Shown: positions 8,433 through 52,221 of the stretch, in pieces
How positions within the stretch are numbered: the stretch's first letter is position 1
Layout: the number at the start of each line of letters is the position of its first letter
Translations under genes and position numbers: made by a program
The notes under the pieces: generated by a model
What the model was told of the DNA's origin: nothing
Databases searched by the model: none
What the model saw: only the letters and a program-made list of their open reading frames with translations
Source: Mobula hypostoma
Lineage: Eukaryota
DNA: 64,000 nt
Reading direction: 5' to 3'
Assembly: GCF_963921235.1 (NCBI RefSeq)
Contig: NC_086106.1
Span: 103,788,001-103,852,000, forward strand

Positions 8433-9205
8433 TCTCTTGTTTATAAAATTATGTATTTTCCCTTTGCTTGTACCAGACTATGCAAAATTGACTGCTGTAA
8501 TACTTATATCATATCAAGTGTAGCCCCCCGGCCAACCTCAGGGTCGCTCAGCTCGCTGTCGTCTAGGGAAACAGCCCTCGGTCCTGCCAAACTGGGTAAT
8601 TAGTTTGTGTGGATGCTGTGTGATGTACCCCACCCCGCCCAATTAACAGACAGTACACCAGATACGATTAAATGATTTACAGTTTATAGACATTACTGGA
8701 ACTATATAATCAATAGAGATTAAAATATAAAAGGAAAATAAAAGGTGCCACACTTAACAAAGTTCAATCTCTTCGTGCACAAACAGTTGGAGCTCAGGAC
8801 CCTTCTTCTTTACCCTGCGACCCCTTGGACCACATTGACTGGCCACCTGGGACCAACAACGGTGGTCGACCGGACGCTCCACACGAGTCCGTCTCCGTCT
8901 CCCCGCTGAACGCCCTCCTCAGGGTCCGACCCCGTTAGCAGACATCACAGCACCTGGTCCCATCCTCTGTCTCTCTCTCCCGCCTTCTGCCTCAAAACCC
9001 CGCGCATACAGTATCTTCAAATACACCAAAAACATAACAACTATCCCAATTGGTTCATAACATATTCTTATCACACTCCTAACCCAAAACAAGCTGCTAG
9101 CGCAAAAACTTTCTCAGCGTTTAACATAACAAAGAAGCATTCCCAAGTATAACATAACAAAGAAGCCATTTTAATTAGCCTACGCAGTAACATAAGAGGC
9201 GAAAC

Positions 9206-9403
9206 TGGCCCTTGTGGCTAAAGGGATCAGGGGGTATGGAGGGAAGGCTGGTTTGTGACTAAAGGGATCAGAGGGTATGGAGGGAAGGCTGGTACAGGAT
9301 TCTGAGTTGGATGATCAGCCATGATCATACTGAACGGCGGTGCAGGCTCGAAGGGCTGAACAGCCTACTCCTGCACCTATTTTCTATGTTTCTATGTTTC
9401 TAT
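9206..9403 (+). mobile_element. Young CR1 3' end inserted in the LTR
   Basis: CR1 3' UTR with (TTTCTATG)n tail, GAAAC on both sides and a ~40-bp tandem duplication at its 5' end; absent from the solo LTR at 51532-52221. Confidence 0.85.
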
Positions 9404-9919
9404 GAAACCCCCTTACACTCTCCCCCCACCAACTAAAGTCATGTCCTCATGACTTCTAAATAACTCGCCACCCAGTCCTACAGACACACAACACACACAT
9501 ACACAGATACACACAGTGACAGTTCTCCCCAAACAGTGGACCTTACTCCCGTCCCACGGGCGCTACATAGGCCAACCTATCTGGGAGCTTCTTAACTCAC
9601 CGAGTCCTCCGTACCGCCTCACCTAAACCCAAAAGGCTCAGACACTACTAGGGATACCTCGGGCCTGCTTGCCAACTCCTCTCTCACTCAGGCCACCATT
9701 ACAGCTCGGAGCCCCCTGTCCCGTGTCTGGGGCCCCGCTTCTCTTCCTTCCTGATCCTGCTGTAACTCAGACTGCCCACAGCTAGCCCTCCCCACTACAC
9801 CTGACCCAGTGGGAGAAGGGCCAAAGGTCTCTCCCTCAATCACGGGGAAGTTAGCGAAAGGCAGCATGTACCACATGTGCAGCACATCATCCTTCGAATC
9901 TGTATTCTTCCTCATTCCC

Positions 9920-10745
9920 TCGATCGGTAGCTGCTGTATAAGTTACTCCAAACTGAAACATTTAGCCGGGGACCCCTTCAGCCTCCTGCAGTCGAGACGT
10001 CAGCTTCTTCGGGGACTCATTCAACTCTCGCCACAGCCTCAGCAGCTCTGACTCAGAGTTCTTGGCCATCTCAATCTGGGACGCAGTTACCCCACCAGCT
10101 TCTTCCTCCCTGACCTGAAAAGCAGCAGTTAAAGAATGTTCAGCCTCCGGTTGTTTCTTCCTGAGGGCGTCTTCCAGGTCAACTTCCAGTTTTTCCACTT
10201 CATTTGAACTCGCGATAGTCATCTTCAGGTTCCTTTCAAGCGTCCGCCTCCCTTTTCCGAGATCTGTCCTCCATTTCTTCACCTCCTCGGGAGTGTAGTC
10301 AAACTCCCCTCTCTGGGCTCTCGGTTTTCTGTTGGCCTTAATCAGAACTCTTCCTTGATCTTCCCCAACTTGTAAGTCTTCCAATCTTTTCTGAATCGAC
10401 GTCTTGAGTTTCTGCTGATCCCTTCAAAGGTGGGTCATTGTTTCTTCTCGCTGGATTAATTCATCAATACATGACCACAGTGCCAGCTCGGAATTCCATT
10501 GCTCCTTCTCCATGTTGCCGAGCGTGAATTCCAAGTCTACAATGGTCGTCCCACAAGTGCATCACGCAGTCTCCGGCCGACATTTCTGAGCACTCAGTTC
10601 AGCGGTGCAAATCCCCTCTCTCCCCTGTGTCTCATTCAGATTGACGACCTGGGTTTCCATCCCCAGGTCCACCACCATCTGTTCCAACACCAGGAATTTC
10701 AACTGATATGTCAGGTCATCTTTCTCACATTGCACCAAACTCCTC
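9920..10745 (-). pseudogene. Myosin heavy chain (class II) rod fragment, intronless, embedded in the Gypsy pol frame
   Basis: Reads EKDDLTYQL...TAELSAQKCRPE...IVDLEFTLGNMEKE...QKRLEDLQVGEDQ..LIKAN...EEVKKWRTDLGKGRRTLERNLKMTI...GGVTASQIEMAKNSESELLRLWRELNES..KKLTSRLQEAE..AKCFSLE. This parallels the myosin II rod motifs EKNDL, AELTAKKRKLE, DLELTLAKVEKE, LDDLQAEED, LEGDLK, GGATSAQIEMNKKRE, KKLAQRLQEAE, AKCSSLEK. Confidence 0.8.
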
Positions 10746-12097
10746 TGGCCAAAAACTCCTCCACATGTGACACTTCGCTTCTGTCGCCTGGGCTCAGCCA
10801 CTCGCCTCGCTTCATAGACCCCCCAGGCAAATCCAAGCTCTAGGCGGTCATCCACATATGCCAAAACTCCACACACCTTCACCTCTCCCATGGTCTTCCT
10901 CTTGCCCCGCGGGGAGGATGCAGGGGCTCCGGATATGCCCTTGGACATCTTTTCGGATCGGAAGAATCCTAGGGAACTAATAACGGCCATCTTTGGCTCG
11001 ACAGCTGCACCCCTCAGGATCTGGCAACATCCACTCCTCAGATCCAGCACGTTAAATGACGTCACATAATCCACACACACGCTGCCTCCATCTTCCACGG
11101 TGCCAGGGTCCAGTTGCCGCGACTTCTCTCTCACTGAGGTGTCTTCAGCGGTCAACTCCTCTCCCTCGTGGTAGTTCGGAGCATCTACTAAGAGGGTCTG
11201 ACCCTCAGCTACTTTCCCCAGGCCGTACCACCACTGGGTCTCGCTTAAATTCGGTCCCGGATCAAGGCTGCTACACACGTCCTCAGAAGCAACTCAACAC
11301 GCTGGGTGCCCAGACAATGCCCCCATGAACTCCAGGGTCATTAACCAATCATCATCTTCTGGATAACTACTGGCACTGGTACCCAAAATCTCTGGTGTCC
11401 TTATGGTTGTCAAGGGTAAATGCTTTTAAAAGGACTTTGTTGACTTCAAAGCACTTTAGAACATTCAGAGGTTGAGAAAGGTGTCTTACAGTAATGCTGT
11501 GATTTCCTCATCACTACAGCAATATATACACATTATATCATGTTATACCTTGGAGTAAGCTTTTGCTCATACTCTCTAAATCACAGATAATTGTTCTATG
11601 CTAGCAATAACATTTTACAAGGGAAATGTTTTACACTGTAAGTTGCATCTTATTTATTTTCATAATGAAAATAAACAAATGAAGAGGAGACCTAAAATAC
11701 AGTGGTTGTTTCTTACACTACCTGTGTCCTCTGCTTTCTGTGGTTCCTGAGAAACATTGTACATCGTAATTCGAGCCTTACAATCCAGGTGGATATTTGT
11801 GGTTTGTAAATAGATAAAAGGCTCAAAATGTACTTCTCTTGCAAGTACAATACGACAATAACCTGGCAGCAAAGATGAAGGTAAAATAAAACTCTATAGA
11901 TTTGAATTGAAGACAAAGAGATCATGTTTGCAAACATTTTTGTTCTGTTATTATCATTAATCAATTTTATTGTAAATGGATGAACTACCTTACAAAAGGC
12001 ATGTCACAGCTGCATGTTAAGTTCATCTATCAATAGCAAGCTTAATACTGCAAGATAGTTTCATTCTTGAAAAAGGAAATGAACACAAATAACAGAA

Positions 12098-19350: not shown

Positions 19351-19835
19351 AACAAATGAAATAGCTGGTGACGCCTCTGTTTGAGGTAGATTTTCATTAT
19401 AAATGCATGTCTCGGGTTGCACTTTATCAGCCAACTCTTGTCGGTAAACATGGAAATGGCTACTGTGCACTGGATGATATTAGATACATGTTTTATGCCG
19501 GGCAAATGTCAGAGACACTCAGGAGAATTACATTTGTAAGTGCCCAAGCTGATATTTGACTGGTTGCTTATCAGTCTGAAAACGATCATTGGCAGCATCT
19601 ACAGGATACAAAATAACTTTTATATGCAATAGCTCCATATAGGTCCATTTGGTCCACTTTCTGTGACTGAACAATCGTTGGGAATGTAGTAGTTTTTCAA
19701 TTACTTTCCTTCGCATTAGCAGACAAAATAAATGCATTTGAAAACTAATGAAGGAAAGGTAATTTCAAACTTGGATTGAAGTCAATACAAATTTTATTGA
19801 TTGACCTTTTGAAAAGATTTTGATCATGCATAATA

Positions 19836-20194
19836 TAGAAACATAGAAAATAGGTGCAGGAGTAGGCCATTCGGCCCTTCGAGCCTGCCCCCCATTTATT
19901 ATGATCATGACTGATCATCCAACTCAGAACCCAGCCCCCGCCTTCCCTCCATACCCCCTGATCCCCGTAGCCACAAGGGCCATATCTAACTCCCTCTTAA
20001 ATATAGCCAATGAACTGGCCTCAACTGTTTCCTGTGGCAGAGAATTCCACAGATTCACCACTCTCTGTGTGAAGAAGTTTTTCCTAATCTCAGTCCTAAA
20101 AGGCTTCCCCTTTATCCTCAAACTGTGACCCCTTGTTCTGGACTTCCCCAACATCGGGAACAATCTTCCTGCATCTAGCCTGTCCAATCCCTTT
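19836..20194 (-). mobile_element. Young CR1 3' fragment
   Basis: ORF 19924-20187; nearly identical to the corresponding part of 28778-29424. Confidence 0.9.
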
Positions 20195-21579
20195 ATACTG
20201 CTCTAGAGACACAGACTTTGCAGCATTGACTGATACATTTTAAACCCCATAAACTGTTTTGTGTCCTAAGGCAGCTGTATTGCAACAAATTGTAGAGTAC
20301 TTTGTCAAAATATTCCATACACGTCCACAATCAAGTTAACAAATAAATTACACACAGAAAAGAAATAAATAGATCAATCTGCAATGTGGAAGTTCATGAA
20401 CACATGCAGACACACATGAAATAAAACCTCAGCAGGCCTAGCTGAAAAGGATGGAACAAATAGCTGAAGATTAACCTTGACAATAAAGTCCTTGGAGAGC
20501 TATTCATTCATAGTCCCTGACTCAGTTGTCTTCATGTTCAATGTCATTTATAACACTTAAAATATTGTCATGAAAAGGAAAATATTTGAACATTTACAGA
20601 ATTTCATAATCAAAAAAGAAAAAATATATAAAGTTAAACTGGATCCCAAAACCTGCAGAATGGAAGGCAACAAGGTTATGTATATTTCTAAAAGGAACTG
20701 CTTTTTAATGGAGTGAAAAGAAAATTTAAAACATTGGATAGCTATATAGTCCAGGTATGTATGTGAGAATTTGAATACAAAATAGTGACACTGTGGCGTT
20801 GGCAATGTAGGGTGACATTTTGCGGGCAGCTCGAAAACTACTTGATATCCTACTAGAAATACTTTGAACTATGTTTACTGCAATCTGCAATTTCCCTTTA
20901 AGAAACGTACTTTTTGAATTGTCTGCATGAACTAGTGATTTTTTTTTATGATCTGAAGGATTTAGTGAACTTTCAGCATTTTGAACCTGGCGAAGATCAG
21001 CCACAGGATTAAAGCTGTCCTCTCTGGTTGTTTTTGATCCATTTCCCACTCTTCCCGCTTCCACCATCCAGCGGGGGGTGAATGAGTCTTTACATCCCAC
21101 GCCGCCAGGTTAATAAACAGTTATTGCCCTACAACTGTCAGGCTCCTGGACCAGCATGAATGGCTTTATTAGCCTTGGTGCTGAATGAATTACAAAGCCC
21201 TTAGACTCACTTTCAAAGACTCTGCCTTTGTTATGTATGTTTCTTTCATGGATTCTATTGTATTTCTTTATTTTCCTGTGGATGCCTGCAAGAAAATGTT
21301 TCTCAAAGTTGTATATGATATACACACTAAGATAAGAAATTACTTTGAACTTTGAAGAAGAATGATGTCTTACTACAATTATATCAGTGCTACATCTGGA
21401 GTATTGTGTATTGTCATAGTCATAGTCATAGTCATACTTCATTGATCCCGAGGGAAAAGTACAGTTTTGGTCTCCTAACCTAAAAGGACATATTTGCTGC
21501 AGAAGAAGTGAAATGAATATTGTAGCCATTTGTAAGTTCATTGGTTGCAGGAGGGGTAGCTCAGTATTCTGGAGTTCCA

Positions 21580-28559: not shown

Positions 28560-29845
28560 CAGCTTTTCTTTCTGGACCTACTTTGATCCTGGCTTCTCTC
28601 CCAGTCCTGACTTCTTTCTCTTTCTTTATCCAGTTTTTTACTTTTTCTTCTTTCTGTGATGTGTACCTGGATCTTGGGAAGGTCCATTTAGTTCACTGGA
28701 GTATTCTCTTATTAATCCTTATATTGCTCCCTTTACAATCTGATCTCTCCTCTTGGTTTCCTCATTCACAACATCATAGAAACACAGAAACATAGAAAAT
28801 AGGTGCAGGAGTAGGCCATTCGGCCCTTTGAGCCTGCACCGCCATTTATTATGATCATGGCTGATCATCCAACTCAGAACCCCTCCCCAGCCTTCCCTCC
28901 ATACCCCCTGACCCCCGTAGCACAAGGGCCATATCTAACTCCCTCTTAAATATAGCCAATGAACTGGCCTCAACTGTTTCCTGTGGCAGAGAATTCCACA
29001 GATTCACCACTCTCTGTGTGAAGAAGTTTTTCCTAATCTCGGTCCTAAAAGGCTTCCCCTCTATCCTCAAACTGTGACCCCTCGTTCTGGACTTCCCCAA
29101 CATCGGGAACAATCTTCCTGCATCTAGCCTGTCCAATCCCTTTAGGATCTTATACGTTTCAATCAGATCCCCCCTCAATCTTCTAAATTCCAACGAGTAC
29201 AAGCCCAGTTCATCCAGTCTTTCTTCATATGAAAGTCCTGCCATCCCAGGAATCAATCTGGTGAACCTTCTTTGTACTCCCTCTATGGCAAAGATGTCTT
29301 TCCTCAGATTAGGGGACCAAAACTGCACACAATACTCCAGGTGTAGTCTTATCAAGGCCTTGTACAACTGCAGTAGTACCTCCCTGCTCCTGTACTCGAA
29401 TCCTCTCGCTATAAATGCCAGCATATCATCTGACATATCCCCTGCTTTTGTATCTCCATTGACTCTTTTCTGTTTGGTCTTCCACTCTCCCAGCTGGGCT
29501 TTAGTCTTTCTATCTACCTTTACAAGCAGATGTTTGTCTCCCAGTTGAAATTCATGCAAAAATCTTAATGCACACAAAGTAGATTCTGGTTCTTTAAACT
29601 CACAAAAGCTAAATGCTTGCTATTTTCCTAAAGCTCCTTGAACTCTCTTCCATCTTAAAACCAATCCATATTTCACAAGCAACTGCCTGATTAACATATC
29701 AGAAGCTTTCTCAGATATGTTGCCTACAAAATACTGTTGAAGTCAGACCACTGCTTTCGTCACTTTCATGATTCCTTTGAAGAGCATGGTCCTTTCTTTG
29801 TCCAACATGCTTTCCAGCTAGAGGTACAGAAGTTGGCACCAACAC
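28560..29845 (-). pseudogene. RBM25: Processed (retro) pseudogene of RNA-binding motif protein 25
   Basis: VLVPTSVPLAGKHVGQRKDH...TVF/VGNISEKASDMLIRQLLVKYGLVLRWKRVQGALGK*QAFSFCEFKEPESTLCALRFLHEFQLGDKHLLVKVDRKTKAQLGEWK...[CR1]...EETKRRDQIVKGAI*GLIREYSSELNGPSQ..HRKKKK, then an RS/RE-rich piece. No introns; one frameshift and several stops. Confidence 0.9.
28778..29424 (-). mobile_element. Young CR1 3' fragment inserted in the RBM25 retrocopy
   Basis: MLAFIARGFEYRSREVLLQLYKAL..HLEYCVQFWSP; (TTTCTATG)n-type tail; ATCAT on both sides (28773-28777, 29425-29429). Confidence 0.92.
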
Positions 29846-51531: not shown

Positions 51532-52221
51532 TGTAGCCCCCCTGGTAAGCCTCAGGGTCGCTCAACTTGCTGCCATCTAGGGGAAACAGCCCTCAGCCCT
51601 GCCAAACTGGGTAATTAAGTTTGTGTGGATGCTGTGTGATGTACCCCACCCTGCCAAATAACAGACAGTATACCAGATACAATTAACTGAATTACAATTT
51701 TTAGATATTACTGGAACTATGTAATTAATAGAGATAAAATATAAAAGGAAAATAAAAGGCGCCAAACTAATCAAAGTTCAATCTCTTCGTGCACAAACAG
51801 CTGGAGCTCTAGTAACAATCCTCTTTTCACCATTCGATCTCCTCTGACCACCTCGACCCGCCGCCTGGGACCAACCACGGTGGTCGACCAGATGCTCCAC
51901 ACGAGTCTGTCTTCGTCTCCTCTCCTCGCCGAAGACCCTGGACTTCGGACTCCGACTCGGGGTCCAACCCGCCGGCCAGCTCACAGCATCGTGTCCACTC
52001 TCTCTCTCCCCATCATGCCATCTGCCCCAAAAACCAGCGCATCACAATAGCTTATAGACACATAAGAAAGAATAACATCTATCCCAATTGGTTAGCAACT
52101 GAATACAACTCCCTCTATAACCCAAACAAGCTGCTAGTGAAAGAACTTTCTCAGCAGTTAATATAACAAAGAAGCCATTTTGATTATCCTACGCAGTAAC
52201 ATAAAAGAAGAAACCCTTACA
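51532..52221 (-). mobile_element. Solo LTR of the myosin-carrying Gypsy family, inserted in a CR1 fragment
   Basis: Homologous end-to-end to 8519-9417; TGTA...TACA ends; 4-bp TSD CTAG (51528-51531, 52222-52225). Confidence 0.92.

Follow-up and report, generated by a model that had tools for sequence, protein, structure and literature searches.

A family of Ty3/Gypsy LTR retrotransposons in the ray Mobula hypostoma carries, in place of its integrase, spliced exons of a host MYH16-like myosin heavy chain gene. Along the replicating lineage of this family, the amino acids drifted like neutral sequence, and neither stops nor frameshifts were fixed. From these comparisons we think it reasonably probable that selection kept the family RNA translatable in cis, and that the myosin would be a passenger, free of stops and in frame by chance.

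The copy in the window

The window, that is, the whole stretch of 64,000 nucleotides that was analysed (C40:103,788,001–103,852,000 of the 3.48-Gb genome), contains a decayed, 5'-truncated copy of this 4.2-kb non-autonomous Gypsy LTR family on its minus strand. As an earlier, sequence-only reading had described, one frame (11293–9965) runs from the RT motifs LDLRSG and YVDD straight into coiled-coil sequence. It is broken by two TGA stops (10564 and 10426) and by a private frameshift near 9971.

The copy can be divided into remnants of pol, three blocks of myosin cargo and a 3' end, all on the minus strand. A protease-region remnant (11318..11402) is identified by tblastn to residues 70–105 of the intact pol P0317; the family alignment begins at 11402, and no gag, PBS or 5' LTR lies 5' of this position within the window. 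This is followed by a heavily deleted RT stub (LDLRSG...YVDD; 10805..11098), which matches P0317 residues 429–516 and P0174 residues 435–518 at 42–45% (E ~1e-15), and by an RNase H stub (10667..10753), which matches P0322 residues 247–275 at 48%, equivalent to P0317 residues 702–730 and inside Pfam RT_RNaseH at 669–773. The latter stub, joined to the myosin through a later deletion, contains the "EKNDL" previously taken for myosin: 10753–10667 can be aligned to RNase H of an intact, related pol (EKNYPTHKLEFLALKWAVVD), where the motif reads EKNYP. The myosin starts at ~10673 and not at 10745 as had been proposed.

Cargo block 1 (10115..10673) consists of donor exons A (part), B, C, D and E (part), which abut one another at 77–86% DNA identity per exon; it holds both stops, and the donor introns missing from it are 39, 19, 29 and 3 kb long with ag/gt ends. 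Block 2 (10010..10106) has the end of exon G spliced to the start of exon H (EEAGG...SQIE), with 97% and 82% identity to the donor, respectively. Block 3 (9909..10010) is reached by skipping from exon H to exon K at a GAG.T.GAGGAG repeat; it comprises the end of exon K and exon L (KKLTSRLQEAE...) at 71% identity and contains the private frameshift. The segment thereafter (9433..9908), once labelled an integrase tail, matches P0317 residues 1334–1522 and is the pol C-terminal tail, which lies 3' of the integrase in intact relatives. A polypurine tract (PPT; 9418..9432), identical to that preceding the 3' LTR in full-length copies, is followed by the 3' LTR (TGTAAG...CTACA; 8519..9417). This LTR is 88% identical to that of copy L035 and is split at ~9206–9401 by an unrelated repeat insertion (family D14/I5).

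The myosin match is collinear and far above chance (Myosin-4 residues 914–1091, E 8.4e-12, PDB), which bears out the earlier identification, and weaker matches fall near residues 1165–1185 and 1392–1404 of the same protein. The Myosin_tail_1 profile on which that identification was to be checked gave no significant Pfam match to the window copy, nor did RVT_1; sibling copy L023 matches RVT_1 at E 0.003.

Elsewhere in the window, a solo LTR flanked on both sides by CTAG (51532..52221, minus strand) belongs to a related subfamily. It is 76–77% identical to the young LTR, 74% to that of the old copy L057 and 73–79% to that of the parent-type copy L110. At these identities it cannot be assigned to the myosin-carrying subfamily, and it is by itself no proof of a multicopy family, for which it had been cited. 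Two repeat copies (19832–20195 and 28781–29144), 93–99% alike and 8949 bases apart, represent a recent insertion pair or a local duplication. A search for a tRNA gene within the window found none, and no RNA data set was listed as containing the stretch, a result that carries no information on expression.

A multicopy family lacking integrase

That the chimera spread as a non-autonomous family is confirmed by two genome-wide counts. A 551-bp probe across the pol-myosin join returned 867 candidates; all 40 that were scored matched over the full length, and the 39 besides the window copy were 92–93% identical to the probe. A 22-base junction pattern, with one mismatch allowed, has at least 396 matches in the genome and none in the control. 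This pattern is carried by 40 of 45 young copies, which were picked for likeness to the window and have a mean pairwise identity of 92.6%.

Both LTRs were present within the stretch fetched for 24 of 39 copies. They are direct repeats of ~700 bp with TG...CA ends, 82–95% alike (median 92%), and enclose a 2.8-kb interior in full-length copies. Exact 4-bp target duplications flank 15 of the 19 copies with clean ends. Domain remnants follow the Ty3/Gypsy order (gag, protease, RT, RNase H), with the cargo at the position of the P0317 integrase. The PPT is conserved and differs little from the PPT of an intact sister family, and the 5' LTR is followed by a conserved site that may match tRNA-Pro. 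Integrase was absent from every copy examined, and the RT and RNase H of young copies are stubs only. The family is a non-autonomous Ty3/Gypsy LTR retrotransposon.

An LTR-based search for an autonomous partner gave 14 LTR matches, namely two myosin-carrying elements and 12 solo LTRs. A myosin-free parent family was found in the same genome (1585 candidates, 40 scored), and two of its matches adjoin integrase matches. This family appears to be integrase-bearing, its intact copies being known from search matches alone. A more distant, intact sister family (four copies read) has LTR pairs that are 93–99% alike and has the PPT and LTR start in common with the myosin family. A large, young, intact-looking Gypsy family related to the parent was also seen (L090–L093; 146 integrase matches scored, LTR pairs up to 99% alike). 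In the parent (L110:3800-3900) and sister families, the gag stop comes right after a GGGAAAC heptamer; in the myosin family this stop is a sense codon, and the gag frame is longer.

The family extends to other rays: an 81% protein match exists in Mobula birostris, and relatives occur in Hypanus and Hemitrygon. NCBI gene models P0169, P0173, P0178, P0236, P0324 and P0067 (Hypanus, Mobula) consist of element sequence. Such models carry the names myosin or MYH16, and one is called "transmembrane protein 192 isoform X1". A literature search, which did not extend to repeat databases (Repbase, Dfam), found no published description of an LTR retrotransposon with a captured myosin heavy chain, and myosin appears nowhere in the main text of a ray genome preprint, whose supplements were outside the reach of the search.

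The donor gene

Database matches of the cargo point to MYH16, as had been suggested from its motifs, and a spliced MYH16-type mRNA was indeed captured. The source, however, is not the canonical gene. A second gene with MYH16-type exon structure, found through a rod segment that is absent from the element, lies at C68:14,480,496-14,723,874. Each donor exon there is bounded by ag/gt, and the element joins these exons exactly across introns of 3–39 kb; the old copy L057 has exact joins at eight donor introns. The C68 exons match old copies at 89–96%, except for one at 80% in L057, where this copy has a private insertion. Over the whole cargo, identity to C68 is 89–93% for nine old copies, 84–90% for three intermediates and 79–81% for young copies. 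The window cargo is 79.5% identical in DNA and 60% in protein, and much of the strong divergence noted previously came from comparison with the wrong myosin.

The 13 C68 exons that were read are stop-free; the 3' end of the first is probably overrun by ~8 codons. A short donor exon 5' of exon A was sought and not found in roughly 27 of the 44 kb of upstream intron. The C68 protein is 56–60% like MYH16 proteins and is sister to them within the MYH16 clade (support 100/99 with lamprey MYH16). Its exact place has support of 81/57 on a long branch. The AU test rejects a tree grouping it with ray and chimaera MYH16 (p-AU 2e-5); the model used is subject to the same long-branch pull. Contigs from three of four runs (two studies) skip a 505-base GT..AG intron of the gene, their RNA status being a predicted label. 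The donor is a second, spliced MYH16-like host gene, distinct from canonical MYH16 and transcribed insofar as these contigs are RNA. Its protein was missing among those returned by protein searches, a second MYH16 paralog is unmentioned in the accessible portions of MYH16 reviews, and for donor exon A the ESM Atlas returned nothing beyond "myosin tail".

Other candidates were rejected. Canonical ray MYH16 (C36, 83% to Callorhinchus) is 58–62% identical to the cargo in DNA with synonymous sites saturated, and in the tree the cargo branched outside all jawed-vertebrate MYH16s. A horizontal origin from a teleost or lamprey, hinted at by the top matches and the tree, was dropped after the host donor was found, and a gene at C2:160.9 Mb proved to be myosin-7-like. 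The C68 gene has very long introns and lies near the fast-myosin cluster; at C68:15.3–15.9 Mb there is a tandem array of at least eight conventional sarcomeric myosin genes. Additional intron-free, broken myosin-tail matches occur at C18:48,745,314-48,746,731, C50:30,689,110, C184, C157 and C21:138,691,427. Two loci fetched from these matches (L068 and L069) have no similarity to the element and look like ordinary processed pseudogenes.

The capture event and the subfamily ladder

The intact reference pol, P0317, has RT at residues 400–559, RNase H at 644–773 and integrase at 936–1102. Older copies keep the end of RNase H and the start of the linker, continue into myosin and resume pol at ~residue 1334; the integrase domains (936–1102) are absent. 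The cargo therefore replaced integrase only. The claim that myosin had displaced most of RT, RNase H and integrase is thus not supported beyond integrase. The RT and RNase H were eroded by later deletions, which in the young subfamily also cut the protease and produced the new RNase H-myosin join.

At the 5' junction, 16 of 17 parent pattern matches have ...GACGAG and then GAGTGGGAGAGY or a sequence close to it. In most of them, parent pol reads GAGGAGTGGGAGAGY, and donor exon A begins (ag)GAGCGGGAGAGT, so that 12–13 of 14 bases are alike. As parent pol and the start of donor exon A share this sequence, the switch is placed in an in-frame microhomology. Microhomology at the 3' junction is only approximate, as judged from one parent-type copy. 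All mapped cargo joins lie in glutamate-rich repeats of the same phase. Both ends of the cargo join pol directly, the 3' end falls inside coding exon L, and there is neither a poly(A) nor a target duplication of its own, which speaks against a LINE retrocopy that landed in a dead element. The spliced exons and the 5' microhomology uphold the earlier proposal of template switching, and the capture was likely an LTR-mediated retrocopy of a spliced host mRNA, made by template switching at in-frame microhomology. The junction pattern agrees with template switching as modelled by Tan et al. 2016 in the available text (PMC5131818).

Twelve non-young copies, obtained from myosin searches, and L109 form a ladder of ever shorter pol and cargo. 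Its order leads from L057, with the longest cargo, through a radiation of old copies and then L060/L067, L064, L065 and L066 to the young burst on a long stem. The commonest codons of the old copies have 93% amino acid identity to the donor, and for this reason these copies are taken to have inserted not long after the capture. The internal deletion and the 3' join recur in gene models of Hypanus and Hemitrygon, whose best scores are with the intermediates. It follows that the capture would predate the split of the Mobula-Hypanus-Hemitrygon rays, barring transfer of the element from one to another. The cargo parts that were lost are not the same in different subfamilies and in other rays.

Reading frame versus protein sequence

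Each inserted copy, including that in the window, decays neutrally after insertion. Among 45 copies, dN/dS-like ratios were 0.9–1.2 in every region, indicating no purifying selection on the protein across these copies, and 12 of 74 private indels were in frame. Post-insertion stop counts were below expectation in control frames too (0.52–0.79) and were therefore left out of the tests.

The replicating lineage shows a different signature in its reading frame. The open pol-myosin frame that the sequence-only reading had called for exists at the level of the family: when the commonest codon among the 45 young copies is taken at each position, there is no stop in 239 gag codons or in 714 pol-frame codons (alignment columns 1–718 and 431–2571, offset −1), whereas the two remaining frames have 44 and 55 stops. 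The GGGAAAC heptamer is kept in 32 of 41 young rows, and the same heptamer is found in the parent and sister families. From donor to young cargo (248 codons), dN was 0.184 and dS 0.279, giving a dN/dS of 0.66 (0.41–1.05) versus 0.75 in neutral simulation, with no stops versus 4.1 expected (P 0.016). For gag/pol from old to young (377 codons), dN/dS was 0.80 versus 0.74 simulated, with no stops versus 6.3 expected (P 0.002). The old group in these tests includes neither the three intermediates nor L062, which is nearly the same as L061. Over the whole lineage of 625 codons, no stop was fixed where ~10 were expected under a simulation that ignores sequence context; taken region by region, the stop tests were each non-significant, the cargo excepted. 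The degenerate protease, RT and tail follow the same pattern as the cargo. An A>C excess was observed on the replicating lineage (29 of 133 substitutions, donor to young) and is absent from post-insertion decay.

Further support for a preserved frame comes from the deletions. All five internal cargo deletions are multiples of three. Among lineage indels supported by at least five of nine older copies, a cut chosen after the list was seen, 10 of 12 are in frame within the frames and none of three behind the stop. Deletions of 39, 36, 45, 15 and 75 nt in gag and of 159 and 78 nt in pol are all in frame. Many indels with two to four supporters are out of frame, mostly in the poorly aligned RT-RNase H stretch. 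The protein sequence itself drifted. Prolines in the cargo rose from 0 to 9 over 248 columns, and heptad a/d positions changed as often as the others (21 of 56 and 50 of 135, respectively). Of the hydrophobic a/d residues, 30 of 34 are still hydrophobic and four became non-hydrophobic. With dN/dS fitting neutrality and prolines piling up, the suggestion that the chimeric protein was under selection is not sustained, although the wide dN/dS intervals, which reach down to 0.41, leave room for weak constraint.

Proposed selection for translation and the alternatives

The events proposed here would begin with a Gypsy element swapping its integrase for spliced MYH16-like exons at short, in-frame look-alike stretches. 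The hybrid RNA would be transcribed from the LTR, then packaged and copied by helper proteins, likely those of the intact parent family. Ribosomes would shift −1 at the retained GGGAAAC and cross the whole pol-myosin frame. Such read-through may strip decay factors (PMC10141005) and thereby shield the RNA from nonsense-mediated decay. In addition, or instead, the RNA may be tied in cis to its own Gag-fusion protein for packaging, as for mouse IAP 1delta1, where the available text reports that translation helps in cis (PMC6466679). The myosin would be carried along as the hybrid spread to hundreds of copies.

Among the points against this explanation is that microhomology between glutamate-rich codons favours in-frame joins even when selection is absent. 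Taken further, there may have been no selection on the frame at all, the in-frame joins arising from codon-phased microhomology and the absence of stops being luck along a short master lineage. The shared phase of all mapped cargo joins would be expected then, and the non-significance of the per-region stop tests outside the cargo, together with the simplicity of the simulation, leans the same way. Luck is strained by the ~10 stops missing over 625 codons and by gag and pol deletions that are all in frame, when none of three behind the stop is; we consider it unlikely. The splice-site position of the 5' junction raises another possibility, that a cryptic donor in pol was spliced to the host exon by read-through from an element inside the myosin gene. 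The cargo does begin at the exon A acceptor, and one parent-type copy reads GAG|GTGAG at the junction. That motif, though, was imposed by the search pattern and by a private deletion of this copy; the 16 of 17 parent matches have six extra bases and no GT there, with microhomology to the exon instead, and the upstream intron, of which roughly 27 of its 44 kb could be read, showed no element remnant in that part. Such an origin is very improbable.

It has also to be asked whether the Gag-pol-myosin fusion worked for the element, with the rod selected at the protein level as a coiled-coil spacer or oligomeriser that entered helper particles. A frame kept through hundreds of substitutions is what this predicts, as is retention of blocks 886–1075-equivalent in the young burst; the dN/dS point estimates are below 1 and the hydrophobic a/d residues are mostly conserved in kind. 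Even so, a working rod is improbable when dN/dS fits the neutral simulation, nine prolines were fixed, a/d sites change as often as other sites, the cargo parts lost differ among subfamilies and other rays, and the degenerate protease, RT and tail behave alike. It is a shade less probable still that the captured rod was recruited by the element, the fusion formed by −1 frameshifting using its coiled coil to bring its own RNA into the particles of a helper. If true, a host structural-protein domain would have driven a retrotransposon burst in a vertebrate.

Selection for a translatable RNA thus remains the preferred reading. In this family, selection for an open frame can be told apart from selection on the protein sequence, a distinction relevant to why some non-autonomous LTR elements are more numerous than their helpers. 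With the donor gene, the parent family, the 5' junction and a ladder of intermediates all found in one genome, gene capture is documented here with unusual completeness for a vertebrate. The analysis also brings to light a second sarcomeric myosin gene of MYH16-like type in rays, and element copies named myosin or MYH16 in the NCBI gene sets of several rays can inflate myosin counts.

Comparison with known systems

In acutely transforming retroviruses, host exons replace a replication gene and the virus depends on a helper, as in the myosin family. Unlike these viruses, the myosin family lacks env, and nothing indicates that a host-derived function was selected in it.

Closer relatives in kind are the LTR-mediated retrocopies, or pseudo-LTR retrotransposons, of animals (Tan et al. 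2016; PMC5131818). In the available text, these share with the ray family a partial, spliced mRNA in sense orientation within an LTR element, microsimilarity at the switch and secondary retroposition. They are described there as single or few copies, whereas the ray family has hundreds of copies and a long subfamily ladder, occurs in cartilaginous fish and has kept its frame open over 15–20% lineage divergence. Maize Bs1, as covered in the same text (PMC5131818), is likewise a non-autonomous LTR element with host exons in a long frame and common switch points; it has 1–5 copies, derives from three parent genes and reportedly yields a hybrid protein. The myosin family, by contrast, has a single donor and numbers 400 or more copies, and its protein shows no sign of constraint. 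Mouse IAP 1delta1, according to the portion available (PMC6466679), is also a non-autonomous deletion derivative with an in-frame gag-pol fusion that is mobilised in trans and outnumbers fuller forms. It is an ERV that lacks host cargo, and the cis effect was tested there, whereas for the myosin family it is inferred only. The kind of event, LTR-mediated retroposition, is already known. What is new is the donor paralog, the replacement of integrase only at in-frame microhomology, and a deletion ladder in which the frame was kept but the protein drifted.
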